Notes: generated by a model from the sequence alone, not told the origin. A DNA stretch of 64,000 bases from Candidatus Lloydbacteria bacterium RIFCSPHIGHO2_02_FULL_50_18 (GCA_001821395.1 MHLM01000006.1:1-64000), one strand, 5' to 3'; counted from the first letter of the stretch, positions 3,812-38,942 are shown. Made by a program: numbers and translations.

Positions 3812-5131
3812 ATGCGGTCACACGATCGCATTATTCACTCATCTTTACCCTCTATGGCAAAGACGCAACTCACTTGGCAGACGGAGAAACGCAAGGTCGA
3901 TGACCTCGTTCCCCACGCCAAGAACCCTCGCACCCTCTCTCCAAAGCAGAAGGAGGAAATCGAAGCGAGCATTACCAAGTTTAACCTCGTCGAGATCCCC
4001 GCGATCAACACCGACAATCTCGTCCTCGCCGGACACGTTCGCCTGAAGACCATGCAGGCACTCGGGCGCGGGCAGGAACTGATCGACGTGCGCGTCCCAA
4101 ATCGCACGCTCACTGCAAAGGAGTGCGAAGAGTACCTTCTCCGTTCCAATAAGAACACCGGCTCATGGGATTATGAGCTACTCAGAGCATTCGATACCGA
4201 GTTTTTGCTCGACATCGGATTCGACGATACCGACCTTTCGAATATTTGGGACGATGTACTCTCACTCGAAGACGACGACTTCAATGAGACGAAAGAGCTC
4301 GAGAAAGCCAAGAAAACCACCATCAAGGTCGGTGACTGCTTTCAGCTCGGTGATCACTCCCTCATATGCGGTGACAGCACCGACGAAGCGGTCGTGAAAG
4401 ACTTGGTCGGAGGCTTCCGCATCGACACCATCTATTCGGATAGCCCGTACAACATCGACCTGAACTATGACAAGGGCGTAGGCAACAAGCAGTCATACGG
4501 TGGAGATGTCGACGACAACAAGTCTGATGCGGAGTTCAGGGCATTCACCGTGAAGACCCTTGCGAACGGACTCTCGGTCATCAAGAAGGACGCACATGTC
4601 TTCTGGTGGTGCGACCAGCGTTATGTCGGGATGATCCAATCGGTGTATCAGGAGGTTGGGATCAAGTACAAGCGCACCTGCTTGTGGATCAAGAACGGAT
4701 TTTCGCCGACACCCAAGGTCGCCTTCAACAAGTGCTACGAGCCTTGTATCTATGGCACTATCGGCAAGCCCTATCTCTCCGACAAACAGCGCAAACTCCA
4801 CGAGATACTCAACACCGATGTTGGCACGGGAAACGCCACGGTAGATGACATCAGTGACATGATCGACATATGGCTTGCAAAGCGTGTGAGTAGCGACGAG
4901 TACGAGCACCCCACCCAGAAGCCACTCACGCTCCACGAACGCCCACTCCTGCGCTGCACGAAGATTGGCGATAATGTCCTCGACCTCTTCGGGGGAAGTG
5001 GTTCGACGCTTCTCGCTTGTGAACAACTGGGGCGCAAGGCCTTCCTCGTCGAACTGAGCCCCATCTTTTGTCAGCTCATCATCAACCGCTATGAAAAATT
5101 CACCGGAGACAAAGCAATCAAGCTCAATTAA
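3812..5131 (+). CDS. ParB-like nuclease domain fused to a beta-class DNA (N4-C/N6-A) methyltransferase
   Basis: N-terminal ParB-like motif region; motif IV DSPYN then motif I DLFGGSGST (order IV then I is beta class). Confidence 0.8.
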   Translation: MRSHDRIIHSSLPSMAKTQLTWQTEKRKVDDLVPHAKNPRTLSPKQKEEIEASITKFNLVEIPAINTDNLVLAGHVRLKTMQALGRGQELIDVRVPNRTLTAKECEEYLLRSNKNTGSWDYELLRAFDTEFLLDIGFDDTDLSNIWDDVLSLEDDDFNETKELEKAKKTTIKVGDCFQLGDHSLICGDSTDEAVVKDLVGGFRIDTIYSDSPYNIDLNYDKGVGNKQSYGGDVDDNKSDAEFRAFTVKTLANGLSVIKKDAHVFWWCDQRYVGMIQSVYQEVGIKYKRTCLWIKNGFSPTPKVAFNKCYEPCIYGTIGKPYLSDKQRKLHEILNTDVGTGNATVDDISDMIDIWLAKRVSSDEYEHPTQKPLTLHERPLLRCTKIGDNVLDLFGGSGSTLLACEQLGRKAFLVELSPIFCQLIINRYEKFTGDKAIKLN

Positions 5132-5888
5132 GACGGGAGATGTGATCGCGCTCGGTGATCACATCCTGATCTGTGGAGATGCGACAAAGGTTGACCTCGC
5201 GAGCATTGTGAAAGGCAGAGTCCACCTTGTCCTCACCGACCCGCCGTATGCGATCGACTACGTGGCGAGCAAGCGCAACATCGTCGGCGTGTCGAAGGAC
5301 AAGGATATTGCGAACGATGGCTTCATGAGTGATGCAGAGTATGTGACATTCACGAAGGGGTGGCTCACGCCAGTACTCCCCCTCCTTGAGAAGAAGAACA
5401 GCATCTACGTCTTCAACTCGGACAAGATGATCTTCGCTCTGAGGCAGGCATTCGTGGAGCTCAGGCTCAAGGTGGCACAGCTCATCATTTGGGTGAAGGA
5501 TCGCGCCATCGTCGGGAGACTCGACTACCTCCCACAACATGAGCTCATCCTCTATGGATGGCACGGGACCCACGACTTCAAGCGCGGGAAGGACAAGTCA
5601 GTCATGTTCGTGCCGAAGCCATCACGCAGTACGCTTCACCCCACCATGAAGCCGATCCCTCTCCTCCGCAAACTCATCTTGAACAGTACCGATGTGGGTG
5701 ACGTGGTCTATGACCCGTTCGGAGGGAGCGGATCGACGCTCATCGCCTGCGAACACACGAAGCGCAGATGCGTCATGGTGGAGATGGATCCCGAGTACTG
5801 CGCAACGATCGTTCGTCGCTACGAGCAGTTGATTAACCGCGAAGACAATGGCAAGCAAGCACCCCACAGTACTGGAAAAGCGAATTGA
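5091..5888 (+). CDS. Beta-class DNA methyltransferase (DPPY)
   Basis: LTDPPYAIDY (motif IV) then DPFGGSGSTLIA (motif I); overlaps the upstream MTase by 41 nt. Confidence 0.8.
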   Translation: MKNSPETKQSSSIKTGDVIALGDHILICGDATKVDLASIVKGRVHLVLTDPPYAIDYVASKRNIVGVSKDKDIANDGFMSDAEYVTFTKGWLTPVLPLLEKKNSIYVFNSDKMIFALRQAFVELRLKVAQLIIWVKDRAIVGRLDYLPQHELILYGWHGTHDFKRGKDKSVMFVPKPSRSTLHPTMKPIPLLRKLILNSTDVGDVVYDPFGGSGSTLIACEHTKRRCVMVEMDPEYCATIVRRYEQLINREDNGKQAPHSTGKAN

Positions 5889-6246
5889 TGCCCAAAAGGA
5901 AAAGGTTATCGAGTTCCTTGCTGAATCCGGCAACATCAGCTTCGCATGCAAGCGAGGGGGTATCAGTCGCGAGACATACTACCGATGGAGGGACGATGCG
6001 AGGTTTGCGGCAAAGGCTGACAGTGCCATTCAGTCGGGCAAGACCTTCGTGAACGACCTTGCCCACACCCAGCTCATCCGCAAGATCCAAGAGGGTGACA
6101 TGCAAGCGATACGCTTCCATCTCGTGAACTGCCATGACGACTATCGCCCGAAGCTGCCCGAGCGCATCGAGCGCGTGGTGCCGATCACTGCGGTGGAGAT
6201 CATTCAGGCGAGCCATGACTGCAAGAAAGAGGTTAACGCCGAGTAG
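5848..6246 (+). CDS. Phage terminase small subunit-like HTH protein (P27 family-like)
   Basis: GNISFACKRGGISRETYYRWRDDARF..AIRFHLVN pattern typical of TerS-type HTH proteins; no large terminase nearby. Confidence 0.55.
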   Translation: MASKHPTVLEKRIDAQKEKVIEFLAESGNISFACKRGGISRETYYRWRDDARFAAKADSAIQSGKTFVNDLAHTQLIRKIQEGDMQAIRFHLVNCHDDYRPKLPERIERVVPITAVEIIQASHDCKKEVNAE

Positions 6247-6982
6247 TCGCCTCCATAATCTTCTCCGCGATCTGTTTCCAATCATTATTCGATACTCCGT
6301 GTGCCACCGAGTGAGGGACGACTGCATATACTGTGTGGTCGTCTTTTGCTACATAGAGTTTCTTGGGAATTGTTTCGTGAAATGGTGCATCAGTGATCTC
6401 TCTCCAGTCTTCGAGATAGACCATGGAGTAACAGATGACGACTTTGGGTTTGTGTTTTTGGATGAGTTCACGGAGACGCTTAATGCGTTCGGGTTTGTAC
6501 ATCTTGAGGTACTCACGGCGAGATGACAGCCCCTCAATTCCCGATGATGCATACACCCAATCTTTTGCATGGAGCGAACGAGCAGGGAGCGGCATCAATT
6601 CGAGTAGCGCGTGATCATTGTTCTTTCTGCCAAAATGATTGATCTGGTATTCGCGGATATCTTCAAGTGATGGTTCTTTGCTTGTTTGGAAATAGCGTAG
6701 CAGATAGATCAGCTTGCGATAGGTTGCTTGTGTCGGCGCACCGTCCGTAAACCACGCCATGTGATCCGCATCACCGCCCATATCGTCGCAGATATCAAAG
6801 ACTTCTCCGTTTGATGTTGCTTCGAAACGTTTGATGAGTTTGGGTATTGATCCGTCGCATCCTTCTTCCATTCCTACAAACCACACATCACTATCTAATT
6901 CTCCATAACCCCAGAAATGTGCAATGCGTTCGTTGATCAGATGCCGAAAATTCCCTTCCGAAGAAAGTGTCGAGTTGTTCAT
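6233..6982 (-). CDS. Hypothetical protein
   Basis: 249-aa ORF; CTCTAGCGGG motif 10-20 nt upstream of the start. Confidence 0.45.
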   Translation of the reverse strand: MNNSTLSSEGNFRHLINERIAHFWGYGELDSDVWFVGMEEGCDGSIPKLIKRFEATSNGEVFDICDDMGGDADHMAWFTDGAPTQATYRKLIYLLRYFQTSKEPSLEDIREYQINHFGRKNNDHALLELMPLPARSLHAKDWVYASSGIEGLSSRREYLKMYKPERIKRLRELIQKHKPKVVICYSMVYLEDWREITDAPFHETIPKKLYVAKDDHTVYAVVPHSVAHGVSNNDWKQIAEKIMEATTRR

Positions 6983-7014: not shown

Positions 7015-7581
7015 CTACTCTTTATCGGTTGTTCCATCCTGATAGATGATCGTACCAGGAAGCCAGACGTACTTGAGATTTTCAAGATCGGTGTTGTTCA
7101 ACTTGATATCGCTATCAATGAACTGGTTGTATTTGATGCTTGCAACCCACGCTTTGTCGGTGTGTGCAGCAATGGGAGTATCGTCGTATGCAATGCTCAC
7201 GCGTTTGATCTCGTTCTTGAAGATGTCGTAGAAGATGATCATTCCCTCTACGCCGCGAACATCTTTTGCGGTTTTGTTGGAGAACTTAAAGCCAAGGGTG
7301 ATGTAACTTTGAAATTGACCATCCTCGGCATTTGCGGGGTCAAACTTTTTCGAGGTGACCGTGAGGTCAACCTTTTCACGAAGTTTGTTCGGGGTGGCGA
7401 TATCCGCAACGGGAGCTTTCTCCTCGATGGTGGTTTTTCCATCCATCATGCCCGTGATTCCTTTTAATCCTTCAGATAATGCATTGCGTATTTGATACGC
7501 TTTGTACTCCATACCGGAGAAAAATCCTATGATAAAAATAAGTGCCGCAAGAGCGGTCTTTACGATGTGCTGCTTGTTCAT
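7015..7581 (-). CDS. Membrane-anchored or secreted hypothetical protein
   Basis: 188 aa with an N-terminal hydrophobic helix; structured leader upstream. Confidence 0.5.
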   Translation of the reverse strand: MNKQHIVKTALAALIFIIGFFSGMEYKAYQIRNALSEGLKGITGMMDGKTTIEEKAPVADIATPNKLREKVDLTVTSKKFDPANAEDGQFQSYITLGFKFSNKTAKDVRGVEGMIIFYDIFKNEIKRVSIAYDDTPIAAHTDKAWVASIKYNQFIDSDIKLNNTDLENLKYVWLPGTIIYQDGTTDKE

Positions 7582-7809: not shown

Positions 7810-7847
7810 GAAACCGCTCAACCTTAGCTTAGATCAAGCGGTTTGCG
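7810..7847 (-). terminator. Hairpin downstream of the RM operon (AAACCGCT..AGCGGTTT), a possible terminator
   Basis: 8-bp stem with an 18-nt loop; followed on the minus strand by a weak CTTTATAT tract. Confidence 0.3.
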
Positions 7848-7868: not shown

Positions 7869-9023
7869 TTAATCAACCAGTTGGTAAAAACAGTTAGTTA
7901 ATTGGCGAATTAATTCTGGATAAATAGCGTCAAACGAGGAACCTTCTGGAATACCCAGCCGCTGACATACTGATACTAAGGCTTCAAATTTTTTCTCGTC
8001 ACTTACGGCATGGAGAAGATTTACCCGAAGATCGTACAGAACAAATAATGGGGAAACTATTTTGTGGACGTCCTTTTTAGGAAACTTCAGGCTAAACAGT
8101 AGTTCAATCCTCTTTAGTCCACCCAAATTTTTGGGGTCACCACCCAGCTTAATTATGATTGCCCCAAGATTGCTGACATCCAAAGATTCAATATTTATCT
8201 TATTCAAAAGATCCACGATATCCTTTTGCTCCTTTTCCGTATGAAGGACCGGTGGATTAAGTTTGGAGATGGATTGAATGGTCTCGTTTGTTAAATGACT
8301 CACCTCAAGTCCAAACTCTTTTGTACAAAACTCTAGGAATACAGACCGAGCATTAATTAACTTATCTTCAGGTGTATAGTCAGTAAATTTAACTTCAATC
8401 TGGCCATCATAGAACTCACTTCCAATGTCGTGGTCAGACTCAATATTTTCTGAACGCAGATAGTATTGCTCAGACTCATCTAGCGTGGCCATGTCACCAA
8501 GCCACATTATTACTTTTCCAGACTTGTTTACACCAAAAGATATATCGAAATCCTTTCCGCTGTAAATACTCCCATAGGTTTTTGAAGCAAATCGCACTCT
8601 ATAATCGGAATGGTTCTGGAATTTGAGCAGCACAGATTTTTTAAAAAATACAGGAGTTAAAAACCCAGAATTGTGATCTCTTTGCAGTCCAGGTATATAA
8701 TAGTAATCATCCGCATCATAAATAAATTTAACTTTTGTAAATCCAAGGTCCTCAACTATCTTCCTTCGATTACTGAAAATAGTATCCCGGTGTTCCTCAA
8801 GCGCCTTTTGGTGTAAATGAATGATCACAAATCTACTGTGATCAGGAAAATATTTTAAATCACATGATCCACAAAATAGATACGGTAGGGCTTGAATTGA
8901 TATATTTATTCCTGACACCAGTTCGTTGAAATCGAAATATTTCAAAACCATCGACTGTCCGCAATTTTCACAATATATACGCTGAACTTTTCCATCTTCG
9001 GGAAAGATATCCTTTATATCCAT
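7869..9023 (-). CDS. Uncharacterised zinc-ribbon protein that is the last gene of the type I RM operon
   Basis: 384 aa; N-terminal CENCG..CGSCD; 3-bp gap after the hsdR stop; no Walker motif, so not PrrC-like. Confidence 0.55.
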   Translation of the reverse strand: MDIKDIFPEDGKVQRIYCENCGQSMVLKYFDFNELVSGINISIQALPYLFCGSCDLKYFPDHSRFVIIHLHQKALEEHRDTIFSNRRKIVEDLGFTKVKFIYDADDYYYIPGLQRDHNSGFLTPVFFKKSVLLKFQNHSDYRVRFASKTYGSIYSGKDFDISFGVNKSGKVIMWLGDMATLDESEQYYLRSENIESDHDIGSEFYDGQIEVKFTDYTPEDKLINARSVFLEFCTKEFGLEVSHLTNETIQSISKLNPPVLHTEKEQKDIVDLLNKINIESLDVSNLGAIIIKLGGDPKNLGGLKRIELLFSLKFPKKDVHKIVSPLFVLYDLRVNLLHAVSDEKKFEALVSVCQRLGIPEGSSFDAIYPELIRQLTNCFYQLVD

Positions 9024-9026
9024 AGA

Positions 9027-11996
9027 CTAGTAATACTGCCTTATGTACTCATATGCTTTATCAAACAAAATATTATCTTTATGTAAGGCGTATTTATAGA
9101 GCGTCTTGCGAAGTGCCTGCTTGATCTCTCTCTCACCTGCTGCGGTACTCTGCCAACCCGGGAATCGTACAACTTTAACGATTCCATCTATGTCATTCAC
9201 TATGCGTTCTACTATTACAGGAGTTTGGTCAGTTTTGAGTTCAAGAAAAAGTTCGGAAAGAGCGGTCTTGGCACCATCTCTGCGTGTTTCTGTCTCAACT
9301 TCTTTTTCAGCCTGGACAGTTTCCTTCGCCAATTGAATAAGGTCTTTCAAAAACTCAATACTGTTAATTAGGCCCCGCTCAGCCTTATCCCTTAATTCCT
9401 CCAAGCGTTGACCAAGTGCGACAAAACGGGGGTCACCTTTGTGGCGAAGAAATCTCTTTGTAATCTCGATTTCAATTAGCTTAATTTTTTTCTTGTCAGT
9501 AGTGTGCATCAAATCCTCGATAACCTCTGCATCCAGAACTATTTCTTCGAGATGATCGTCAACTCCTTGGACGTGAATGTGTTCATGAATGAGTTTCATC
9601 GTCTGAGCACCAAGTGCATGCCAGAGAAGCCGACCTGTTTCTCCAGAGGGAGGGCGCACGGATTCATACACCTGCGATAACCATGTGTATTCATTCTGAA
9701 ATTTATTCAATATCGGATCTGGAGACAATGCTTCCCATATTTTACTTAAAACCGAGTAGTCCGCAGCATAGGCATCTCGTTTCTCGTCGGTATTTAAACA
9801 ATCCTGAGCTAGCAAAAGGCCTTCATAGCCCACCACAGATCGGTCGATGCCATGAAAATGACCGAGGCAAGTATTAACTGCTCCCTGAAGCTCATTTTTT
9901 AACTCGTTGAGATTTGTGATTACATACCGAACACTGGCATCGTCAAACTCGAGAGCTTTTGCAACATCATCGAATACGCCAAAATAATCCACGACTAATC
10001 CGTATGCCTTATCTTTATATACACGATTAGTGCGGCAAATGGCCTGTAGAAGGTTGTGATCTTTTAGCGCCTTGTCGAGATACATACACTGGAGAATCGG
10101 CGCATCAAACCCTGTAAGTAATTTAGCAGTAACGATCAAAAACTTAAGAGGATGCTCAGGATCCCGGAAGTTGTCGAGAAGTTTTTCCTGGTCTTCCTTG
10201 CTCATCTCATACTTCTGCTTAAGCATGGTGTCTGTTTCGCCCTTGCCGCCCGTTGAGATGACCACCGCACTTGCTTCCGGAGGTAAAATCTTATCAAGTT
10301 CTTGCTTATAGAGGTCACAGGCGTATCTGTCAGGAGTTACGATTTGGGCCTTAAAGCCCTGCGAATCAATTTTTTCTTGAAAATGTTTTACAACATCTTT
10401 AACGATTGTCTCAATGCGAGCAGGAGATTTAAGAAAAGCAGACATCTTTGCCGCTTCCTTTACCAAGCTCGTTCGATCGTCTTCTGAAAGATGTTCTGTC
10501 ATCTGGTCGAATTCAGCATCAATCAAGTCTCTGTCAACGTGAACATTCAATAGGCGCGGTTCGAAGTGCAGAGGGAGTGTTGCCTTGTCGCGAATTGAAT
10601 CCTGAAAAGTATATCGGGTCATGTAACCCTGATCATCTTCTTCGGCACCAAATGCCCAGAACGTGTTTCTTTCTGTTTTGTTGATAGGGGTACCAGTCAG
10701 ACCAAATAGGAATGCGTTCGGCAGGGCATCGCGCATTTTACGACCAAGATCACCCTCTTGTGTGCGATGAGCCTCATCTACCAAGACAATGATGTTTTCT
10801 CGTTCATTAAGCACGCCTCCAGCCTCAGCAAATTTAAAAATGGTAGTTATAATAATCTTTCTCGTATCCTTGTTTAAGAGATCGTGGAGTTCTGATCGTT
10901 TATCTGTTGACACAACATTTGGTATCTCTGTTGCGTTGAAAGTTCCTGTAATTTGAGTATCCAAATCGACTCGATCAACCACAACGAGAACGGTGGGGCT
11001 TTTTAATTCTTGAGATCGACGGAGCTTCTGCGCTGCAAATACCATCAATAGTGACTTACCAGATCCTTGAAAATGCCAAATGAGTCCCTTCTTCGGCCTA
11101 CCCGCCTTTACGCGCTCAATGATCAGGTTTGCGCCCTCCATCTGTTGGTAGCGGGCTATTATTTTTATCCGCTGCTTTCGCTTGTCTGTCGCAAAGAGCG
11201 TGAAGTTTTGAAGCAAGTCCAAAACAACTCCTGGATCAAGTGCTCCGGAAATCGCTTGTTTAATTTCAGAAAGACCCGCAATGGCACCTTTTGAGTCACG
11301 CCAAGGCCCCCACAACTCGAGCGGCATACGAATTGAGCCGTAACGGAATGTTTTACCCTCGGTTGCAAACGAAAACACATTTGGAACAAATAGTTGCGGG
11401 ATTGTATTTTCGTAATCGTCGTGAATATCGATCGCGCCGTCGAGCCAAGAAATAGAGGGGCGCACGGGTGTCTTAAATTCTCCCACGACGAGCGGAATTC
11501 CATTAACCAACATCACCAAATCGGGACGTTTCTCAGCCTTGCCTTGAACGGTGTACTGATTTGTGACAATGTATGTATTTTTCCCCAAGCTATCGAAATC
11601 AATAAAACTGATCGAAACGTGCTCATTATTTTCGCCAAACGGCATTGTCTTGTCACCACGGAGCCACGCAGAAAATTCTTCGTTCGCTCTAACGAGACCG
11701 GATGTTCCGACCGAGAGAAAGATCGCTCGTATTTTATATAAAACTTCGTCGGCTTTATTGGGGTCAGCTGCAATATCCGGATTAAGACGAATCAGAGCGT
11801 CTTTTAATAGCGACTCAACGATTGCATCTTTGGCTTCGCGCTTGAGTTGAGAGGAGGGAACGTATTGCCACTTCAAACCAGGGTGAAAAGCACTATCTGG
11901 GGCAAGATAGTTTGAATCCTGCATAAGCTCCGGGCTTATGCCGGTAAGTTCGTTCAAGATAAAGTGTTCGGTTGTATTTATTTCGTTAAATTTCAT
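9027..11996 (-). CDS. hsdR: Type I restriction enzyme R subunit
   Basis: 989 aa; SF2 helicase motif I FQGSGKS and DEAH box VLVDEAHRTQ; position after hsdS. Confidence 0.9.
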   Translation of the reverse strand: MKFNEINTTEHFILNELTGISPELMQDSNYLAPDSAFHPGLKWQYVPSSQLKREAKDAIVESLLKDALIRLNPDIAADPNKADEVLYKIRAIFLSVGTSGLVRANEEFSAWLRGDKTMPFGENNEHVSISFIDFDSLGKNTYIVTNQYTVQGKAEKRPDLVMLVNGIPLVVGEFKTPVRPSISWLDGAIDIHDDYENTIPQLFVPNVFSFATEGKTFRYGSIRMPLELWGPWRDSKGAIAGLSEIKQAISGALDPGVVLDLLQNFTLFATDKRKQRIKIIARYQQMEGANLIIERVKAGRPKKGLIWHFQGSGKSLLMVFAAQKLRRSQELKSPTVLVVVDRVDLDTQITGTFNATEIPNVVSTDKRSELHDLLNKDTRKIIITTIFKFAEAGGVLNERENIIVLVDEAHRTQEGDLGRKMRDALPNAFLFGLTGTPINKTERNTFWAFGAEEDDQGYMTRYTFQDSIRDKATLPLHFEPRLLNVHVDRDLIDAEFDQMTEHLSEDDRTSLVKEAAKMSAFLKSPARIETIVKDVVKHFQEKIDSQGFKAQIVTPDRYACDLYKQELDKILPPEASAVVISTGGKGETDTMLKQKYEMSKEDQEKLLDNFRDPEHPLKFLIVTAKLLTGFDAPILQCMYLDKALKDHNLLQAICRTNRVYKDKAYGLVVDYFGVFDDVAKALEFDDASVRYVITNLNELKNELQGAVNTCLGHFHGIDRSVVGYEGLLLAQDCLNTDEKRDAYAADYSVLSKIWEALSPDPILNKFQNEYTWLSQVYESVRPPSGETGRLLWHALGAQTMKLIHEHIHVQGVDDHLEEIVLDAEVIEDLMHTTDKKKIKLIEIEITKRFLRHKGDPRFVALGQRLEELRDKAERGLINSIEFLKDLIQLAKETVQAEKEVETETRRDGAKTALSELFLELKTDQTPVIVERIVNDIDGIVKVVRFPGWQSTAAGEREIKQALRKTLYKYALHKDNILFDKAYEYIRQYY

Positions 11997-13138
11997 GTAA
12001 TTACTTGAGTGAGGATTGCGTTTCGCATCGCCCTCGTTAGTTCGATAGAATTTTGCAACTGCTTCTTGATCTCCGTAAGTTGAGCAAGGTTCCTGAGAAT
12101 ATCTTTTTGCTTCTCGAGAGTAGGAACATAGATTTTATACTCGGAAACAATCTTATGAGATATGCGAGGCATCTTTGTCCCAAACCCCAGGGAAACAGCA
12201 TAGTGAATGAAACCATCAGAGTGTAGGTGGTGGAGAACGTATTCAATGTCTATATCAGGCGTTGCATCATACACAAGCAATTCCGTTGTACAGACTCCAT
12301 CAAATGATGGAATAACAGCCTTATCCAAATTGGGGCGTAGCTTGCTATAGAGCAATTGCCCGCTTTTGAAGACGTTGCAAGAGGACTGTGATTGTTGAGC
12401 GTCGCCATAAGCATCTACATTAAACGACCCTGGTTCAATATGCTCCAAACCTAAGTATTTCTCAAGTTTGTGTGGCGGAGCACTCTTCATCTTTGAAAGT
12501 TTTAAACATTCGCCTAGTTTTTTCCTGTCTAGTTTATTCTTAGTGAGTTCAGCAAAAATTGTCTTGAGTGTCAAATTTATTTTGTCCGCCGCGATTCTGT
12601 ATTTCTCTTCCAATTGATCTGACGCTATCAAAAGACCCAGTATTTTCTTCTGTACCTGACGGGGTGGCAGAAGAAATTTCTGTTGCGCAAGAATTTTCCA
12701 TTTAATGGTCGGTGAAAGTGAGCCTTCAGAGATATCTATCGCCCGATTCATAAATGCGTCAGAATGCATAAAGAATGGAAGAAAATCTGGTTCAATATGG
12801 GATGAATCTGCGCGGACGACCATCGCATGTGCGGAGCAAATTCCATCAAACTCTGCTATGGAGGCTTTTCTCTGGTATGCACGCCGTTTCCCAAAGATTA
12901 TGTCCCCTTTATATACACGAAGCTTGACGCCTTTTACATCAGACGGCACGCCGAATCGACGGATGTGAATAGAGTCGGAATCTAGATGTTCAAGACCAAC
13001 ATAAATATCGGCATCGGAACTGTTCGGGTCAACCCTTTCAGAGATATTCTTCGCTATATCACCAAACTTAGCCAACTCCCAATCGGAGCGGTTATGTTTA
13101 ACGAAAATATTTTCAGCTTGTTTATTAAGAGTTTTCAT
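11993..13138 (-). CDS. hsdS: Type I RM specificity subunit
   Basis: 381 aa with two TRD-like halves and conserved central/C-terminal repeats; operon position. Confidence 0.8.
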   Translation of the reverse strand: MKTLNKQAENIFVKHNRSDWELAKFGDIAKNISERVDPNSSDADIYVGLEHLDSDSIHIRRFGVPSDVKGVKLRVYKGDIIFGKRRAYQRKASIAEFDGICSAHAMVVRADSSHIEPDFLPFFMHSDAFMNRAIDISEGSLSPTIKWKILAQQKFLLPPRQVQKKILGLLIASDQLEEKYRIAADKINLTLKTIFAELTKNKLDRKKLGECLKLSKMKSAPPHKLEKYLGLEHIEPGSFNVDAYGDAQQSQSSCNVFKSGQLLYSKLRPNLDKAVIPSFDGVCTTELLVYDATPDIDIEYVLHHLHSDGFIHYAVSLGFGTKMPRISHKIVSEYKIYVPTLEKQKDILRNLAQLTEIKKQLQNSIELTRAMRNAILTQVIT

Positions 13139-14612
13139 ATGTTTTTTTGTCTAACATCTCTAAGAGAGATCGGGATCCCCTTTTTAGGTCAGAACTATTC
13201 TGAGACCATTCCTCTACTACCACTCGGAGTCCTTTTTCTTTAATACCATTCCCTTGAGTAGATATGTAGAGCGGAATATTAAGATTTGCGTTATTGTTGA
13301 GGATATTTTGATTGTCGATCACTTTCGTAAAATTTGGTATATCAATAAATTCCTTAAATGCTGCATGAATTCTTTCAACATGTGGATCTTCAAGAAAAGA
13401 AAAAGCATTCTGCCGCGTTACTTCTTTAACAGCATTTATAAAAAGTACTCTACCTTTTCGTTCTTTAGGTTTGTCCCAACGGCAAACCAACAAGCAGGCC
13501 TCCATGGGTGAGTTGTAAAATAGATTTGGGCCCAAACCGATGACTGCTTCGATTACGTCATCCTTTAGCATTTTTTCTCTGAACTCCCGCTCAGAATCAC
13601 GAAAGAGAACCCCGTGAGGCCAAAGGACAATGCTCCGGCCGTTTTTCTTGTCTAGGCTTTTGAGAATATGCTGCTCAAAAGCATAGTCTGCACATCCTTG
13701 TGGAGGGGTGCCGTAAATGTTTCTCCCGTAAGGATCATTCGTCCACGCATCTCGATTCCACCTCTTAACTGAATACGGCGGGTTCGCAAGGATGACGTCG
13801 AAGGTTTTAAGTTTGTCGTCCTCCAAAAACTTTGGGCTAGACAATGTGTCTCCACGCTCAATATGAAAGTCCTCGATTCCATGAAGAAACATGTTCATTC
13901 GCGCGATGGAGGATGTCATCAGATTCAACTCTTGCCCATAGAGCTTAAGCGTTCGGTATTCTTTACTCTGGTCCTTAAGTTGGTTTACGCAGTTCAGTAA
14001 TAACCCACCAGAACCACAAGTTGGATCGTATACGCTCTCACCTGGCTGGGGGTTCATTATCAAGCTCATTAAACGAACGACCGTACGATTGGTGTAGAAC
14101 TCAGCAGCTGTATGCCCACTATCATCTGCAAACTTCTTGATAAGGAATTCATATGCATTACCAAGTTCGTCATTGGGAACATTGGCAATGCTTAGGTCTT
14201 GTTCAGAAAAATGTTCGAGTAGGTCTATTAGAATCTCGTCAGATAGACGACTCTTGTTTGTCCAAGAGGCGTCGCCAAAAATACCGAATAAACGATCCTC
14301 GTTCGTCTTTTCAATTTTGCGGAGCGCCTTCTGTAGGGCATCCCCCACATTAACCGTCACCTGTCGAACATCATTCCAGTGTGCCCCTTTGGGAATTTGG
14401 AATCTATGATTTTCATCAAATTTTGCATATTCTTTGTCGCCCCCCGATTCATTGAGTGCCCGCTCGTATTCTTCTTTGTAGACATCACAGATGCGCTTAT
14501 AAAATAATAAGGGGAAAATATATTGCTTGTAGTCTCCAGCATCAATGACACCACGAAGAAGTGTCGCCGCTCCCCAAAGATATCTTTCCAGTTCTTGTTT
14601 TTTAATAGCCAT
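13125..14612 (-). CDS. hsdM: Type I RM N6-adenine methyltransferase subunit (paralog 1)
   Basis: 495 aa; VYDPTCGSGGLLL (motif I) and ILANPPYS (motif IV). Confidence 0.9.
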   Translation of the reverse strand: MAIKKQELERYLWGAATLLRGVIDAGDYKQYIFPLLFYKRICDVYKEEYERALNESGGDKEYAKFDENHRFQIPKGAHWNDVRQVTVNVGDALQKALRKIEKTNEDRLFGIFGDASWTNKSRLSDEILIDLLEHFSEQDLSIANVPNDELGNAYEFLIKKFADDSGHTAAEFYTNRTVVRLMSLIMNPQPGESVYDPTCGSGGLLLNCVNQLKDQSKEYRTLKLYGQELNLMTSSIARMNMFLHGIEDFHIERGDTLSSPKFLEDDKLKTFDVILANPPYSVKRWNRDAWTNDPYGRNIYGTPPQGCADYAFEQHILKSLDKKNGRSIVLWPHGVLFRDSEREFREKMLKDDVIEAVIGLGPNLFYNSPMEACLLVCRWDKPKERKGRVLFINAVKEVTRQNAFSFLEDPHVERIHAAFKEFIDIPNFTKVIDNQNILNNNANLNIPLYISTQGNGIKEKGLRVVVEEWSQNSSDLKRGSRSLLEMLDKKTYENS

Positions 14613-14613
14613 A

Positions 14614-16101
14614 CTATTTTGATATCAGAGAAAACCCATCTAAGAGTCTTTTGAGTTCTGTCTCAGCCTCCCATACCTCCTCGAGAGAATTCTTCAACTC
14701 TTTCGTGGCCTCTTCTACTGACGGGAGTGTCTTACCTGAAATCTTTTCAATATAAAGAGAAATATTTAGGCTCCAATCATTTGCCGCAATGTCTTTGAGG
14801 GTTGCCACCACGGCGTGGTCTTTAACACCCTTGAACGCAGAGTACCAGTCGAAAATCTGATCAACATGCCTCTGCTCAAGATAATTTTGAGCACGATCCA
14901 CGCGCACCTGGTCTGATGCGTCTATAAACAAAACCTTACCTTCTTTGTTGTCAGGCTTATTAGCACGAAATACTAAAATGCATGCGGCAACTGTTGCTCC
15001 ATAGAAGATATTAGGCCCAAGTCCTATCACTGCTTCAAGCGCATCTGTCTCTATTATTTTCTTTCTTATTTGTCCTTCTCGACCCTTGCGAAATAGTGCG
15101 CCATGAGGAAGAACCACGGCTATGCGTCCGCGAGGATAAGACATGGATTTGATCATGTGTTGCACCCACGCGTAATCTCCATAACCAGCTGGTGGTACCC
15201 CTGCAAAATTTCTACCGTATGGGTCCTGAATCCAAAGGTCATCACCCCACTTCTTTAGGGAGAAGGGTGGATTAGCAATAACGCAATCAAAGGTCGAAAG
15301 TTGATCGCCTTCATAGTATGCGGGACTTCGTAATGTATCTCCACGCTGAATTTGGAAGTCCTGAACATCGTGGAGGAACATGTTCATGCGAGCAATGGAT
15401 GAAGTGGTGAGGTTTTTTTCCTGTCCAAATATTTTTAGAGTGCGGGCGTCCTTACCATGAGAGCGTAGGTGCTCAACACAATTGAGTAGCATGCCTCCCG
15501 TACCACAGGCTGGGTCATATACAGTCTCACCTTCTTTTGGATCAATTATACGGCCCATGAGCTGAACAACTGTTCTCGGTGTATAAAACTCCCCCGCTTT
15601 CTTGTTTGTTAAATCAGCAAACTTTTTTATGAGGTATTCGTATGCCTGACCGAGCATGTCGAGGTCGACCGTTCCGTTTGCCAGCTTGTATTCAGAAAAA
15701 TGTTCAATAAGTTCCACCAATAAGCTGTCGGGCAACTTCTCCTTGTTGGTCCATTGTGCATCTCCAAAGATCCCATACAGAAAATCAGGATTGGCTTTTT
15801 CAATTTCACGAAATGCATACTGAAGCTTTGCTCCAACATTCTTTGTGGTGGCGCGCACATCTGCCCAATGACATCCATCAGGAATTATAAATCTATGGAA
15901 TTCTGGCAAAACTGCGTAACCCTCATCGCCCTTAGATTCTTCTAATAGCTTTTTATATTCATCATCATAAACATCTGAAAGTCGTTTAAAAAACAGGAGT
16001 GGAAAAACATATACCTTAAAATCAGCAGCATCAACTGGCCCCTTGAGTATCCATGCGGCTTGAGCGAGATGTTGTTCGAGTTGTGGGAGTGTCAATTTCA
16101 T
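14614..16101 (-). CDS. hsdM: Type I RM N6-adenine methyltransferase subunit (paralog 2, roughly 50% identical to paralog 1)
   Basis: 495 aa; VYDPACGTGGMLL and IANPPFS; collinear with paralog 1. Confidence 0.9.
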   Translation of the reverse strand: MKLTLPQLEQHLAQAAWILKGPVDAADFKVYVFPLLFFKRLSDVYDDEYKKLLEESKGDEGYAVLPEFHRFIIPDGCHWADVRATTKNVGAKLQYAFREIEKANPDFLYGIFGDAQWTNKEKLPDSLLVELIEHFSEYKLANGTVDLDMLGQAYEYLIKKFADLTNKKAGEFYTPRTVVQLMGRIIDPKEGETVYDPACGTGGMLLNCVEHLRSHGKDARTLKIFGQEKNLTTSSIARMNMFLHDVQDFQIQRGDTLRSPAYYEGDQLSTFDCVIANPPFSLKKWGDDLWIQDPYGRNFAGVPPAGYGDYAWVQHMIKSMSYPRGRIAVVLPHGALFRKGREGQIRKKIIETDALEAVIGLGPNIFYGATVAACILVFRANKPDNKEGKVLFIDASDQVRVDRAQNYLEQRHVDQIFDWYSAFKGVKDHAVVATLKDIAANDWSLNISLYIEKISGKTLPSVEEATKELKNSLEEVWEAETELKRLLDGFSLISK

Positions 16102-16331
16102 TTTGGTGACGATGTCAGCTTTTCAACGGTAGTCCCCAGAGCTGTGGCAATTTTTACCATCGTTGCCACTCGGGGATCAGGAGTGAGTCCGCTCTCAATC
16201 TTCGCAATGGTGTGATAATCAAGGCCGGTTTTCGTAACCAGCTTGCTCTTAGACAATCGCTTTTCATTTCTAATTTTTCTCAAGTTTCCTGCGATATTTG
16301 AGAATTTTTTTGGGTGAGATTTCTTTTTCAT
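16098..16331 (-). CDS. XRE-family HTH protein; candidate controller (C) protein of the RM operon
   Basis: 77 aa HTH_3-like (LSKSKLVTKTGLDYHTIAKIESG); 4-bp overlap with hsdM. Confidence 0.7.
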   Translation of the reverse strand: MKKKSHPKKFSNIAGNLRKIRNEKRLSKSKLVTKTGLDYHTIAKIESGLTPDPRVATMVKIATALGTTVEKLTSSPK

Positions 16332-16488
16332 ACGACAACCTTGCTTAGCATAATTATACCAAATTTATTGAGTTTTTGCTGCAATAAAAAGTGGATAAAA
16401 ATAGGGCTATTTGAGGGATGGTTACCAACAGCTTACCAACTGACCCTCCCTGGACTCCCTGGGAGGGTTGCGTCATCAATTGGTGTGT

Positions 16489-17844
16489 ATGAAAAATACA
16501 AACCCGCTAGAGGGCTCTGACGAGCCGAAAATTAAGTACTGTTTATACGCTAGAAAATCGAGCGAATCGGACGAGCAGCAAGCCCTTTCGATCGACTCCC
16601 AAGCCAAGGAGATGCTCCAGCTGGCGCAACGAGAGGGGCTTGATGTGGTCGACATCAAGCGCGAGTCGCACTCCGCAAAAAGCACCGGGCAACGCCCGGT
16701 CTTCAATGAGCTGATCAGCGACCTCAAGGAGGGCAAGTTTAATGCCATTCTCGCATGGCATCCGGATCGCTTAAGCAGAAATGCAGGCGACCTCGGTGCT
16801 ATCGTCGACCTGATGGACGAGCACCGACTTATCGAAGTGAGAACCTTTGGTCAAAAGTTTACAAATAGTCCAAGCGAGAAGTTTCTACTCATGATTCTAT
16901 GCTCGCAAGCAAAGCTTGAGAACGACAACAAGGGCGTGAACGTGAAGCGGGGGCTACGAGCAAAAGTTGAGATGGGACTATGGCCATGCGTTGCACCGAC
17001 CGGATACATCAACGACCGCATGCCTGGGCGTGCAGGATATGTGCTCGTCGACCCGGTGCGTGCTCCGATTATCAAGCAAATATTTGAAAAGGTCGGCAAT
17101 GACCGATGGAGCGCTAGGACGGTTTATAAATGGATGGTCAAAGAAGGAAAGTTCAATAGCGTGAGAAAAGGAAATAAGGCACTCACCCTGAGCACAATCT
17201 ATCGACTTCTGCATCAGCCTTTCTATTCGGGAACATTCGAGTACCCCACCGGGAGCGGTAACTGGTACAAAGGTCAACATGAGCCACTCGTTTCCAAGGA
17301 ACTCTTCGAGAAGGTGCAGCAAAAAATAGCGGAGGAGTTGAAGTCAAAGAAACAATATCAAGAATTCACCTTCACGAACCTTATGCTCTGCGGATACTGT
17401 GGGTCAGGTATTACCGCACAATCAAAAGACAAAAATCTCAAAGATGGGAGCGTCAAAAGTTACACCTACTACAACTGCACGCACAACAAGGATCACTTCT
17501 GCAAAAACCCGTTCATTCGCGAAGAAGAACTTCTCAAACAGATCGATGAGATCTTCGACAAGATCGATATCGACGAACTTGGAACACGGCATATCATTGA
17601 AAGAGAGGTTGCGCGATACAACAACATTCGGGCAAAACTCCTCGGCGCAAAAGAAAATGACAAAGCACTCGACGTCGACGTGCGAAACTATGCCAAGTAC
17701 ATGCTCAAAGAAGGCACGATGCTCGAAAAACGCGAACTCCTAGGGTGCCTAAAAAATAGAATTATTCTGAAGGATAAAACGATAACGCTTGAAAAAAGTT
17801 TGCAAATTAATGACTTAACGCCACAAACACAGATAGCACGCTGA
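16489..17844 (+). CDS. Large serine recombinase (resolvase domain, recombinase domain and zinc ribbon)
   Basis: YARKSSESDEQQALSIDSQ catalytic Ser region; C-terminal CGYCGS..YYNCTH; an alternative TTG start exists at 16468. Confidence 0.85.
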   Translation: MKNTNPLEGSDEPKIKYCLYARKSSESDEQQALSIDSQAKEMLQLAQREGLDVVDIKRESHSAKSTGQRPVFNELISDLKEGKFNAILAWHPDRLSRNAGDLGAIVDLMDEHRLIEVRTFGQKFTNSPSEKFLLMILCSQAKLENDNKGVNVKRGLRAKVEMGLWPCVAPTGYINDRMPGRAGYVLVDPVRAPIIKQIFEKVGNDRWSARTVYKWMVKEGKFNSVRKGNKALTLSTIYRLLHQPFYSGTFEYPTGSGNWYKGQHEPLVSKELFEKVQQKIAEELKSKKQYQEFTFTNLMLCGYCGSGITAQSKDKNLKDGSVKSYTYYNCTHNKDHFCKNPFIREEELLKQIDEIFDKIDIDELGTRHIIEREVARYNNIRAKLLGAKENDKALDVDVRNYAKYMLKEGTMLEKRELLGCLKNRIILKDKTITLEKSLQINDLTPQTQIAR

Positions 17845-18172
17845 GGATGACGAGTATCTTCACCCCACCTCCATACACAATCCAAGTAAATAATTTTTTT
17901 GCAGCAAGCATAACTATTCCGAGCACCAGAATGGAAACTCCAACGCCCGTGAGTGGGTCGTGCAATCCTTTCATAGGAGCATGAGTCCAAACAAAAAATA
18001 TACCTACGACAACCATAAGCCGCGCAATTATGTTAAACCAGCTTATGGAATCTTCGTGGCCAAAAGGAGCACCTCCTATGCCAACTTTCTTAGCAAAGAA
18101 GACACGAGTTACTGCTCCGGCAACACTTGCGATAACACGAATTACTAACTGTTGGAAAAAACTCCCATCCAT
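17807..18172 (-). CDS. Small four-TM membrane protein, last gene of the Ubl/E1 operon (candidate effector)
   Basis: 121 aa with four hydrophobic helices; 1-nt gap after the JAB-E1 stop; convergent 38-nt overlap with the recombinase 3' end. Confidence 0.5.
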   Translation of the reverse strand: MDGSFFQQLVIRVIASVAGAVTRVFFAKKVGIGGAPFGHEDSISWFNIIARLMVVVGIFFVWTHAPMKGLHDPLTGVGVSILVLGIVMLAAKKLFTWIVYGGGVKILVILSVLSVFVALSH

Positions 18173-18173
18173 A

Positions 18174-19565
18174 CTATTTTAAGTTCTCATCAAAAACTTG
18201 ATAACTATCATCATTTGAGTCTCCTTTTCCGGTAAATTCTGAGAATGGGCAATTTGGCAAGCAGTCTTCACCGAGTTTTCTTTCCAGCTCCCCGGTAACA
18301 AAATGGTATAGATTTTCACCGTGATGACTTATGCCGTTGGGTTTTACTACAAGTGCCAACATCTGTAGCACCATCATTGAGGCGAGGTGCATGCTAAAAG
18401 CAAAAACGTTTTGATTGTTCAAGTGATGGCGCAAACCGTCAACGGTGTTTATGTACTCCGAATCATCCAGCAGACCTTTGCGTTCAAGAGACACTTCAGC
18501 AAAGGTGTACTGCCCAATGCACGAGAGACATTTATTACCCGGGGTTGCAGTGTGCGCACGCCAATCCGCTGAGCGCAACAAATCCTCCTTGGTGTGCACT
18601 CGAATACCACCATCAACGACTGGAATCAGGTGTGTATAAGCAATGTAATTAAGAACGTGGCGCGCCCACGGCCTATCAACGCAACTGAACAGGAGGTCAC
18701 AATTTAGTGCACCTCGGTATCCCTCAGCTCCAGTTACATGAACTGGTAATCGTGTGACGAAAAAGTTGTCGGCAGTTGCGTGTTCAATAAGTCTTTTTGC
18801 AATTACATCCGTCTTCAATTCACCAACATCTTTTATCGTCGCATGCATAAGTCGATCGAGGTTGTGTTTCTTTACTACGTCAAAATCGATAAGCGAAATA
18901 TGCTGAACTCCAGTTCTAGCAAGTGCCTCAGCAATAGCACTTCCGACACTTCCCGTGCCGACTATTCCTATGTGTAAACGAGATAATTCGTCTTGCTTAT
19001 CTTGACCCCATGAAGAAATTGTACGTTTCAGTTCTTCTCTAAAACCCTGCGGCTTAAGCAGCGCGTCACAATAGGTGATAGAAAGGCCCATTTGACCTAT
19101 AGTGCGAACACTCTCGCACCATGATGGAGCATATTCCCGAACCCCGGTTCTATTCCAAAAACGAGCACTCCACGCACCATCTGTGCCTATAGTTAGTCCA
19201 AGGAGGGGTCGTTCTGTTATTCCAAAGGTTGCCGCAGCGTGCGATAACTCCGCCCGAACATCGGTCCTGCTCATATTCTGCCATCCAGGAAACGGGTGGC
19301 TATGCATAAAAGCAAGGCCCATATCTCGGGCGGATGCTATTTGTAGTGCTCTCTGAAAATACTCGGGAGAAAAACTCGCGTTGCCATGCACTTCCCGCTC
19401 TCCGTCTTCAGGAAGAATCGGTTCAACCAAGAGTGCTGTCAGTCTTTCTCCTCCGCTGCTCGGCTGCCACAAAGCAAAACATAAGTCTTCCTGCCCATCC
19501 TTACGCACAAGATGAGAAAAGAGTTTCTGGTTTACCTCGGTTGTCATCGCTACGCTGTATCTCAT
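18174..19565 (-). CDS. JAB/MPN (JAMM) metalloprotease fused to an E1-like ThiF/MoeB adenylyltransferase
   Basis: N-terminal HSHPFPGWQNMSRTD (HxH..SxxD JAMM motif); then GIVGTGSVGS..IDFDVVKKHNLDRL E1 Rossmann motifs; C-terminal CxxC pairs. Confidence 0.8.
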   Translation of the reverse strand: MRYSVAMTTEVNQKLFSHLVRKDGQEDLCFALWQPSSGGERLTALLVEPILPEDGEREVHGNASFSPEYFQRALQIASARDMGLAFMHSHPFPGWQNMSRTDVRAELSHAAATFGITERPLLGLTIGTDGAWSARFWNRTGVREYAPSWCESVRTIGQMGLSITYCDALLKPQGFREELKRTISSWGQDKQDELSRLHIGIVGTGSVGSAIAEALARTGVQHISLIDFDVVKKHNLDRLMHATIKDVGELKTDVIAKRLIEHATADNFFVTRLPVHVTGAEGYRGALNCDLLFSCVDRPWARHVLNYIAYTHLIPVVDGGIRVHTKEDLLRSADWRAHTATPGNKCLSCIGQYTFAEVSLERKGLLDDSEYINTVDGLRHHLNNQNVFAFSMHLASMMVLQMLALVVKPNGISHHGENLYHFVTGELERKLGEDCLPNCPFSEFTGKGDSNDDSYQVFDENLK

Positions 19566-19924
19566 AGTGTGTTGAGGAGTTTTATAACGTGAGCAAGGTA
19601 AACATCGACGTTACGTTTACTACTTTCCCAGCTCGGGTGCGGCCTACTAAGATGCATCCACTCAGGGCCAAAATCACTGTCGTGAATTCGATCACGATGC
19701 TCCTGTGATGAGGTGTTGGTGGGCAACGTACGCGGATGAATATGTGGGCCGTGGGGAGCAGTCAGCTCAAAGTCTCCTGGGACATCTACCCCAACGCGAA
19801 CTGTCTTGCCTGCAAGAGTTCCTTCGTTGACAGACAGCGCAAATGCCAGCCGATTGCCTTCAAGGTTTTCAACCTCAAAACCAAGATTCTTGAGACCTTG
19901 AATAAATTTTTCTTTGCCGCTCAT
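19562..19924 (-). CDS. E2/UEV-like protein lacking a catalytic Cys
   Basis: 120 aa, beta-rich, then PHGPHIHP (HPN-like) and two W.P-like motifs; no cysteine; 4-bp overlap with the E1 gene. Confidence 0.4.
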   Translation of the reverse strand: MSGKEKFIQGLKNLGFEVENLEGNRLAFALSVNEGTLAGKTVRVGVDVPGDFELTAPHGPHIHPRTLPTNTSSQEHRDRIHDSDFGPEWMHLSRPHPSWESSKRNVDVYLAHVIKLLNTL

Positions 19925-19929
19925 GTTGT

Positions 19930-20184
19930 TTACCCCACAGGCGTTTGTCCAGTAAACACCGTGACGAACTTCATGTGATTATGCATCTTGATCACCTCGT
20001 CCAAATCTTTATGCGGTTCCTGCTGATGACCCTTAACCTCAACCAAATAGTACTGCTGCGAATCGACATTCGCCATTGATAATATCTCTCGAACAGACAA
20101 CTCCTTCTTTTCAGTAGTGAGTGTTTCACCGTCGACCGTAAAATCGATACCGTGACCTTTTTCCTCCTTCTCGTGGTTTTCCAT
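19930..20184 (-). CDS. Ubiquitin-like beta-grasp protein ending ...TGQTPVG
   Basis: 84 aa; IDFTVDGE..YYLVEV..KFVTVF beta-grasp pattern; terminal Gly; 5-bp gap to the next gene. Confidence 0.5.
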   Translation of the reverse strand: MENHEKEEKGHGIDFTVDGETLTTEKKELSVREILSMANVDSQQYYLVEVKGHQQEPHKDLDEVIKMHNHMKFVTVFTGQTPVG

Positions 20185-20323: not shown

Positions 20324-20674
20324 ATGAAACACAATAAAAACAGCGTCAATTTTGCTATTGAGCAATTGGGTCAGAAGGTCGCGCTTAAAAGATCGGGAAG
20401 CGGGATGAGAGATACCTCCGCAGAGATTGGCATCAGCCCTGCTACCCTCTCGCGAATCGAGAGGGGGTACATGCCCGATATCGGCACATTCCAAAAAGTA
20501 TGCACTTGGCTCAACATTGATCCGGGTGAAATTCTTGGTGCAAAAACTCACGTCAGTGAGGTGCAGATGGCAACTGTGCATTTTCGTAAGAAGCAAACGG
20601 TTGCTCCGGAAACCGCGCAAGCTTTAGCACAACTCATTATTGCAGTACAAAATAATGTTCTCGCATCAGAGTAA
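20324..20674 (+). CDS. XRE-family HTH repressor (CapH/ImmR-like)
   Basis: SAEIGISPATLSRIERG HTH_3; paired with the downstream ImmA peptidase. Confidence 0.8.
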   Translation: MKHNKNSVNFAIEQLGQKVALKRSGSGMRDTSAEIGISPATLSRIERGYMPDIGTFQKVCTWLNIDPGEILGAKTHVSEVQMATVHFRKKQTVAPETAQALAQLIIAVQNNVLASE

Positions 20675-20692
20675 AAAACTGATTATGTTGTC

Positions 20693-21271
20693 ATGTTTAA
20701 AAAAGGATTTAAAACCTGGTGTGAAAGAGCTTCAATTAGTACTCGCAGACAACTGGGTCTGCAATCTTTCGATCCGATAGACTTATACAAGGTCGCGGCA
20801 ATCGTCGAGGCTGATATTAAGTATCCAAAAGATGTTCCTGGGCTTGATAAAAAGTTTTTAAAAATTTTAACGGAGGAGGACCCAGATAGCTGGTCTGCAA
20901 TAACCATAAAAATAAAACAGAAAATCGTTATTATTCTAAACTCTGCCCACACCAAAGCGCGTCAGATGAGTAGTCTTGGTCATGAGTTATCTCATTTGAT
21001 TATCGGACACCCTGCGTCCAAAACTGGTATTTCAGCAGATGGGCTTTTGATAACTGGGTTCGATCGACTTCAAGAGGATGAGGCGGGATGGCTTTCGGGG
21101 TGTCTTCTTTTGCCCCATGATGCGTGTCAGTATATTAAAAAGACAAAGATGGACCAAAGCAGTGCTCAACGACATTACGGAATAAGCGCTGATATGTATA
21201 CATATCGCATGAACGCCTCTGGGGTAAATCGCTTGTGGACCCCTAAAGTAAGTAGCATTAAAGCGAAGTAA
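20693..21271 (+). CDS. ImmA/IrrE-family zinc metallopeptidase (CapP-like)
   Basis: HELSHLIIGH HExxH motif in the DUF955 context, directly after the XRE gene. Confidence 0.8.
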   Translation: MFKKGFKTWCERASISTRRQLGLQSFDPIDLYKVAAIVEADIKYPKDVPGLDKKFLKILTEEDPDSWSAITIKIKQKIVIILNSAHTKARQMSSLGHELSHLIIGHPASKTGISADGLLITGFDRLQEDEAGWLSGCLLLPHDACQYIKKTKMDQSSAQRHYGISADMYTYRMNASGVNRLWTPKVSSIKAK

Positions 21272-21302: not shown

Positions 21303-21359
21303 AAAAGCGACCCTTCTGGGTCGCCTCTTGGGTCTCTGCGTCGGGGGTGCCTATAGGGA
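21303..21359. repeat. Putative attR: the partner of the 57-bp direct repeat, overlapping the tRNA-His 3' end and its terminator hairpin
   Basis: See 290..346; the GCGACCC-TTCT-GGGTCGC hairpin serves as the tRNA terminator. Confidence 0.75.
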
Positions 21360-21418
21360 ATCGAACCCTAGCTAAAGGCTCCACAAGCCTCTGTGCTAAC
21401 CGCTACACCATAGGCACC
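21346..21418 (-). tRNA. tRNA-His (GTG) with an encoded G-1
   Basis: Acceptor GTGCCTA/TAGGCAC, anticodon loop TTGTGGA, T-loop GGTTCGATTCC, extra 5' G pairing with discriminator C. Confidence 0.85.
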
Positions 21419-26938: not shown

Positions 26939-27013
26939 TTGCGTCTCCTAAAGAAAACAGGGTGCGTCTGGCGCACCCTGTAAGGTTTAAATCACAATTG
27001 TCGCACGGTTCTC

Positions 27014-38792: not shown

Positions 38793-38855
38793 TCAAGCAA
38801 AGCGCTCTCCTTTGACTAATCAAAATGGCGCCACATGGCGCTCATTTTTAACGGG

Positions 38856-38942
38856 CGGAGGAGGTGAGATTCGAACTCACGGTCCACTTACATGGACGAC
38901 GGTTTTCAAGACCGTTGCCTTAAACCACTCAGCCACTCCTCC
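38856..38942 (-). tRNA. tRNA-Ser (TGA), type II
   Basis: Acceptor GGAGGAG/CTCCTCC, anticodon loop CTTGAAA, long variable arm, T-loop GAGTTCGAATCTC. Confidence 0.8.

Follow-up and report, generated by a model that had tools for sequence, protein, structure and literature searches.

Within a 64,000-nucleotide stretch of DNA from Candidatus Lloydbacteria bacterium RIFCSPHIGHO2_02_FULL_50_18 (GCA_001821395.1 MHLM01000006.1:1-64000; the whole stretch is referred to here as the window), the minus strand carries a type I restriction-modification (R-M) operon with two different hsdM genes in tandem. The upstream gene, hsdM1 (14614-16101), encodes the predicted N6-methyladenine (m6A, adenine) methyltransferase subunit, and the downstream gene, hsdM2 (13125-14612), the predicted N4-methylcytosine (m4C, cytosine) methyltransferase subunit. 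Their products, M1 and M2, are both 495 amino acids (aa) long, and both combine an HsdM_N with an N6_Mtase domain. They are followed by hsdS (11993-13138), encoding a 381-aa protein with the Pfam domain Methylase_S, and by hsdR (9027-11996), whose 989-aa product matches Pfam HSDR_N, SWI2_SNF2, ResIII and T1R_D3-like domains as well as TIGR00348 (E 1.8e-160). The first gene of the operon encodes a 77-aa helix-turn-helix (HTH) protein of the Cro/C1 type (16098-16331; Pfam HTH_3, E 1.3e-8), and the last is an open reading frame (ORF) for a protein of 384 aa (7869-9023). The genes are tightly packed: ATGA overlaps join the HTH gene to hsdM1 and hsdS to hsdR, a 1-nt gap separates the two hsdM genes, hsdM2 and hsdS overlap by 14 nt, and 3 nt without an intervening terminator lie between hsdR and the 384-aa ORF. 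An exact-sequence look-up assigned these genes to Candidatus Lloydbacteria bacterium RIFCSPHIGHO2_01_FULL_49_22. In GenBank, the core proteins are M1 (OGZ05518.1), M2 (OGZ05519.1), S (OGZ05520.1) and R (OGZ05521.1), and the labels given to the two M proteins are merely 'DNA methylase' and 'DNA methyltransferase'.

The original prediction, made from the DNA sequence of the window, described two tandem 495-aa HsdM paralogs of about 50% identity within one type I operon. Their coordinates and domains agree with this description, and the identity between them lies at 50-55%. BLASTP aligned M1 and M2 at 55% identity over residues 1-424 (E 2e-174), with the last ~70 residues diverged, and identity across the trimmed family alignment was 50%. 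At the DNA level, similarity was limited to a single 326-bp stretch of 65% identity. Both proteins gave strong Pfam scores for the N6_Mtase domain (E 1e-100 and 1e-84), and motifs I and IV, which the prediction had placed in both, can be read directly from the two sequences. For motif I, the upstream M1 reads VYDPACGTGGMLL and the downstream M2 reads VYDPTCGSGGLLL. Further signatures of M1 are AGEFYTPR (residues 169-176), DPACGTG, NPPF (277-280) and a small-residue G-A-T-V-A loop (368-372), and those of M2 are R20, AAEFYTNR (169-176), DPTCGSG, NPPY (277-280), F365 and an NSPME loop (367-371). Judged by these residues, both M proteins look catalytically competent, as had been predicted.

The division of motifs between the two proteins is that of the non-canonical M1M2S type I systems (Morgan et al. 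2016, PMC5100572; PMC9613975). In these systems, M1 carries AGEF and NPPF and forms m6A, and M2 carries AAEF and NPPY and forms m4C on the opposite strand. A bulky N-S-P-M-E loop lies beside the flipped base in M2, where M1 has small residues, and an arginine, R29 in PacII M2, is conserved in M2 only. The genes share a common order, with the NPPF-type M gene upstream of the NPPY-type M gene, the latter adjoining S, and R downstream (PMC5100572, PMC9613975). In 2016, REBASE listed more than 300 putative systems of this kind, which made up about 2.5% of all type I systems (PMC5100572), and crystal structures of the PacII M1M2S methyltransferase have been determined (PDB 7VRU/7VS4; Zhu et al. 2022, PMC9613975). 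These structures were the best PDB matches of both M proteins, each through a different chain. M2 matched chain B, PacII M2, at E 1.2e-189 (chain A, 2.8e-137), and M1 matched chain A, PacII M1, at E 8.5e-159 (chain B, 5.4e-153); S matched 7VRU chain C, PacII S, at E 1.1e-66. The locus does not fit a canonical system with a single type of M subunit (M2S1), since its two divergent hsdM genes have different PacII subunits as their orthologs.

Residues that support assembly, catalysis and DNA contact in PacII are largely conserved in the window proteins. For this mapping, PacII numbering was verified against the residues named in the PacII paper and is used in the following lists. M2 retains the interface and blocking residues R29, D33, D36, K38 and R130, the DNA-backbone contacts K167, K168, H175, S289, K291, R346 and S376, and the aromatic cage and catalytic residues F180, N285, P286, P287, Y288 and F373. 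M1 retains D25, E170, F171, R252, N276-F279, S280, R336 and R401. At the position equivalent to R29 of PacII M2, the residue is R20 in window M2 and K20 in window M1, and the same column holds R in 80/80 M2 proteins of the family and K in 70/71 M1 proteins. HMMER alignments to PacII M1 and M2 end 2-5 residues short of the C-termini, and the tails are the least conserved part of the proteins. The original prediction had offered a heteromeric methylase as one of several possibilities, and it is this one that the orthology of each M protein to its own subunit of the PacII heterotrimer supports.

Relatives of the locus were collected by scanning one genome per GTDB species, which yielded at least 521 confirmed matches; 80 loci were retained from these. 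Upstream DNA sufficed for assessment in 76 of them, and all 76 have an M1-type gene ahead of an M2-type gene, with S and usually R after the pair. The duplication that had been proposed for examination in homologous loci is found there throughout. The gap between the M1 and M2 genes is below 20 nt in about a third of these 76. AAEFYTNR, DPTCGSG and NPPY occur in 80/80 M2 orthologs; NPPF occurs in all M1 proteins, and AGEFYTPR in every M1 that covers the region. When 73 M1 and 82 M2 sequences, the window pair and PacII among them, were clustered by average linkage on p-distances, the M1 and M2 groups separated in 99 of 100 bootstraps. At 20 diagnostic columns, conservation reaches 95% or more inside either group and the residues of the two groups differ; the window pair fits 19, and the sole deviation is a conservative I-to-V change. 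Within the family alignment, window M1 shares 52-84% identity with other M1 proteins and 48-52% with M2 proteins; for window M2, the values are 57-82% with other M2 proteins and 46-52% with M1 proteins. The closest relatives among the matches listed (L001-L003, 75-83% identity) are metagenome-assembled genomes (MAGs) that belong to the candidate phyla radiation (CPR) or are unclassified. In the closest of these (L001, MAG SKS1.bin43), M1 is 83% and M2 82% identical to the window proteins. The hsdR gene of L001 (12663-15629) lies on the strand opposite to its HTH, M1, M2 and S genes, whereas hsdR is co-directional in the window and in most loci. We consider it very likely that the window locus is a complete type I R-M system of the known M1M2S, PacII-like m4C/m6A subgroup.

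The specificity subunit offers a clue to the sequence that such a system might recognize. The first target recognition domain of the window S protein (TRD1, about residues 1-160) is 68% identical to the TRD1 of PacII, which reads CCC. PacII S contacts bases through R75, R76 and H94 and the backbone through Y78, Q79 and K81, and all six DNA contacts are kept in the window protein as R85, R86, H104, Y88, Q89 and K91. Among 78 related S proteins, TRD1 classes differ at the position of H94, which may be H, D, T or K; the window S protein belongs to the H class ('RRYQKH'), as PacII does. Given the TRD1 identity, the retained contacts and the shared H class, we predict C-m4C-C as the most likely cytosine half-site, with GCC as a possible alternative. 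No similarity to the PacII TRD2 was found in the TRD2 of the window protein. Cues to the spacer length (N5 or N6), read by hand from the coiled-coil lengths in the S alignment, conflict: the window protein is ~4 residues longer than PacII after the second PLPPL-like motif and ~2 residues shorter in the central region. In HsdR, the motifs PD159...E173-x-K175, GSGKS311, DEAH407, TGTP434 and QAICRTNR651 are all intact. The sequence prerequisites of the nuclease and of the superfamily 2 (SF2) motor thus appear to be in place, consistent with a capacity for restriction.

By analogy with the characterized relatives, we propose that S binds M1 first, by means of a four-helix bundle composed of the S coiled coil and the C-terminal tails of M. 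The M1-S complex would then recruit M2 to give an asymmetric M1-M2-S methylase that might clamp a bipartite site. Positioned over TRD1, M2 would convert the central cytosine of a C-rich half-site, most likely 5'-CCC-3', to m4C, and M1, positioned over TRD2, would place m6A on the other strand. Two copies of HsdR could finally join the methylase complex for the restriction of unmodified DNA.

Several observations count against this assignment or temper it. The m4C activity of M2 is deduced from TRD1 and the pocket residues, and PacII M2 is itself also able to methylate adenine in vitro (PMC9613975). The host is an uncultured Candidatus Lloydbacteria (CPR) MAG. The PacII sequences used for residue mapping were rebuilt from printed HMMER alignments in which the extreme termini are missing. 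Window M2 departs from PacII M2 at three DNA-contact residues, with Q for K15, R for D19 and N402 for R410. Of these three columns, only that of R410 was surveyed, and it is variable in the family (K in 65 proteins, S in 8, N in 4). Finally, window M1 is 52.6% identical to PacII M1 against 49.0% to PacII M2, and because this margin in raw identity is small, the M1 assignment rests mainly on diagnostic residues and clustering. It is conceivable that the heterotrimer methylates adenine on both strands, with M2 as an m6A enzyme in a functionally canonical system, much as PacII M2 accepts an adenine that is placed in its pocket. We regard this as unlikely: the residues of the cytosine pocket (AAEF, NPPY, F365, N367 and M370) are all present in window M2, the TRD1 of window S shares both its class and its base contacts with the PacII TRD1 that reads CCC, and all ten characterized two-M systems yield both m4C and m6A.

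A different possibility is that one paralog has lost its catalytic activity and acts only as a scaffold, as the anti-restriction decoy that the original prediction had entertained, or as an anti-inhibitor decoy. PacII M2 alone neither binds S nor modifies DNA and depends on M1, and the P-to-N change within FYTPR of M2 could at first be taken for degeneration. Since AAEFYTNR is invariant in 80/80 M2 orthologs and is shared with the active PacII M2, the change is a signature of the family rather than decay, and motif I, motif IV and the pocket residues are intact in the window proteins. In addition, NPPY-to-APPA mutants of characterized M2 subunits abolish or strongly reduce m4C. Comparison of both M genes with three relatives gave proportions of nonsynonymous differences (pN) of 0.10-0.18 against proportions of synonymous differences (pS) of 0.85-0.89, reported in place of dN/dS because synonymous sites are saturated (pS >0.75); by this measure, both genes are under purifying selection. 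A dead paralog is therefore very unlikely, and we set a still lower value on the idea that the two M proteins serve alternative S subunits or belong to a phase-variable shufflon. A large serine recombinase gene (16468-17844, plus strand) does lie directly upstream of the type I operon and divergent from it. Yet tblastn with S found a single hsdS in the 64 kb, the window holds neither partial or silent TRD cassettes nor inverted repeats in or around hsdS, and a large, integrase-type serine recombinase near a tRNA-His gene is more in keeping with a mobile island than with a shufflon. Least credible of all is an assembly artifact that has set two strain variants of one gene side by side, a concern raised by the origin of the sequence in a MAG. 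Independent ENA, JGI and Logan assemblies contain the exact M2 protein on 19 contigs, and the six of these that were displayed all keep the M-M-S order. With negligible DNA identity between the two genes and these 19 contigs, the tandem pair is old and not an artifact, and the same M1-M2 order recurs at 76 loci that include other phyla.

Two further genes of the operon flank the M1M2SR genes. An extended -10 element (TGgTATAAT; 16353-16361, minus strand), read by eye 22 nt 5' of the HTH start codon, is promoter-like; the promoter consensus scan had no entry for it because a good -35 element is absent there. The HTH protein weakly matches the PADLOC model 'Control_protein' (E 9e-6) and could be a C-protein-like regulator, which would be unusual for type I systems. 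No clear C-box was found near the HTH promoter, where a short imperfect palindrome (I2, 16345-16362, 82% complementary) overlaps the -10 element. An HTH homolog stands directly upstream of M1 in just one of 69 related loci (L001), for which reason we do not count it as part of the family core.

At the other end, the 384-aa ORF appears to be co-transcribed with hsdR, as judged from their spacing. A terminator-like hairpin with a 14-bp stem and a T-rich tail (7811-7844, minus strand), 25 nt past the stop codon of the ORF, is the probable end of the operon. The ORF has 754 homologs but was placed in no family. tblastn found no homolog of it in any of the 80 related loci, and three homologs, from Oceanimonas, Delftia and Alteromonas-type contigs, are solitary genes within variable regions; on these two grounds, we take it to be a separate mobile gene and not part of the M1M2SR core. 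An AlphaFold2 (AF2) model of the protein (predicted local distance difference test score, pLDDT, 86) shows an MqsA-like N-terminal zinc ribbon and an unassigned middle domain, followed by a helical domain at the C-terminus that contains an invariant R333-x4-H338. In the EcoprrI-PrrC system, an anticodon nuclease is embedded in a type Ic system. The window operon resembles it in the co-transcription of an additional gene with those of a type I system, and the 384-aa protein may carry a HEPN-like R-x4-H motif. From the operon structure and this weak structural resemblance, one could suppose that the M1M2SR core has grown in this CPR lineage into a six-gene transcription unit, a two-layered and regulated form of the m4C/m6A type I system. 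The HTH protein would act as its controller, and the 384-aa protein, whose family is widespread and uncharacterized, could be a fail-safe RNase like PrrC that responds to inhibition of the restriction complex. We find this extension doubtful.

The operon lies among defense-type and mobile genes that extend from about 3 kb to a tRNA-His gene at 21.3 kb. Its GC content (0.37-0.44 over window positions 8000-16000, with the 384-aa ORF lowest at 0.37) is below the 0.48 of the whole window, which points to horizontal acquisition, perhaps in two or more steps. The divergent serine recombinase contains Resolvase, Recombinase and Zn_ribbon_recom domains and probably serves a mobile island as its integrase. 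Beyond it, a four-gene operon on the minus strand (17807-20184) encodes proteins of 84 aa (weak Multi_ubiq match), 120 aa (no match), 463 aa and 121 aa (no match). The 463-aa protein is ThiF/E1-like (PADLOC E1-E2, E 7e-19), and the operon looks like a bacterial ubiquitin-like conjugation or defense cassette. An HTH_3 protein (116 aa) and a Peptidase_M78/IrrE protein (192 aa), a pair of the ImmR/ImmA type of mobile elements, are encoded at 20324-21271 (plus strand) and adjoined by tRNA-His (21343-21418, minus strand), the likely island boundary. On the other side, at 3812-5888 (plus strand), two adjacent and slightly overlapping N6_N4_Mtase genes of 439 and 265 aa in the ORF list (the first of 425 aa in public gene calls for this contig) form the second neighboring methyltransferase pair of the island. 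The flanking, unassigned ORFs at 3140-3766, 6233-6982 and 7015-7581 could include a cognate nuclease. Farther along the window, a PrkA, DUF444 (YeaH) and SpoVR operon is present at 24000-29005 (minus strand) in this CPR genome. ARAGORN reported a 621-nt 'tmRNA*' at 38328-38948 (minus strand), which overlaps tRNA-Ser (38854-38942) and an ORF and is probably a false or permuted call.

The two-methylase architecture was already described in 2016, and the window locus is an ordinary, uncharacterized member of the subgroup. Its value as a discovery is small, with the subgroup known since 2016 and a crystal structure available since 2022. The original prediction was right about the heteromer; it missed that the NPPY paralog is a probable N4-cytosine methyltransferase and that the subgroup had been described. 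The practical gain lies in annotation, where M2 should be labeled a probable N4-cytosine methyltransferase, and in a simple rule for sorting tandem hsdM genes: AGEFYTPR with NPPF marks M1, and AAEFYTNR with NPPY and NSPME marks M2. This rule held in 76/76 loci from many phyla, and such tandem pairs need not be flagged as anomalies. Our reading also predicts m4C in a CCC-type half-site of the host genome, which matters for the methylation-aware binning of metagenomes from groundwater.

The closest counterpart of the window system is PacII from Pseudomonas alcaligenes NEB585. Both have two M paralogs, one with NPPF and AGEF and one with NPPY and AAEF, an NSPME loop and an R29-equivalent arginine confined to M2, and an S subunit of the same TRD1 class; the subunits are 499, 504 and 383 aa long in PacII and 495, 495 and 381 aa in the window. 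The identity between window M1 and M2 falls within the 45-55% range reported for M1M2S systems. The two systems differ in that the M genes of PacII are described as flanking S and R, whereas the window genes are contiguous and overlap or nearly abut. M-to-M identity between PacII and the window is just 53-58%, and the TRD2 domains are unrelated, so the adenine half-site is expected to differ from that of PacII. The window operon also adds the HTH gene at its front and the 384-aa ORF at its end, and its host belongs to the CPR. By description, DbaKI, PcaI, BceNI, Mma5219I, Apa12260I, Asu14238II, Pme5I, Sen483I and Dac11109IV share the M1-M2-S-R order and the dichotomy of motifs. Six of the ten characterized two-M systems have extra ORFs between M1 and M2, unlike the window genes with their single intervening nucleotide. 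The canonical systems EcoR124I and EcoKI (M2S1 methylase, R2M2S1 nuclease) share the domain set of HsdM_N with N6_Mtase, Methylase_S, and HSDR_N with an SF2 motor, as well as the overall clamp architecture, and the M subunit of EcoR124 was the next-best characterized relative (E 3e-58). These systems use two copies of one M subunit to place m6A on both strands, whereas the window encodes two distinct M subunits, one of them with a cytosine-type pocket.

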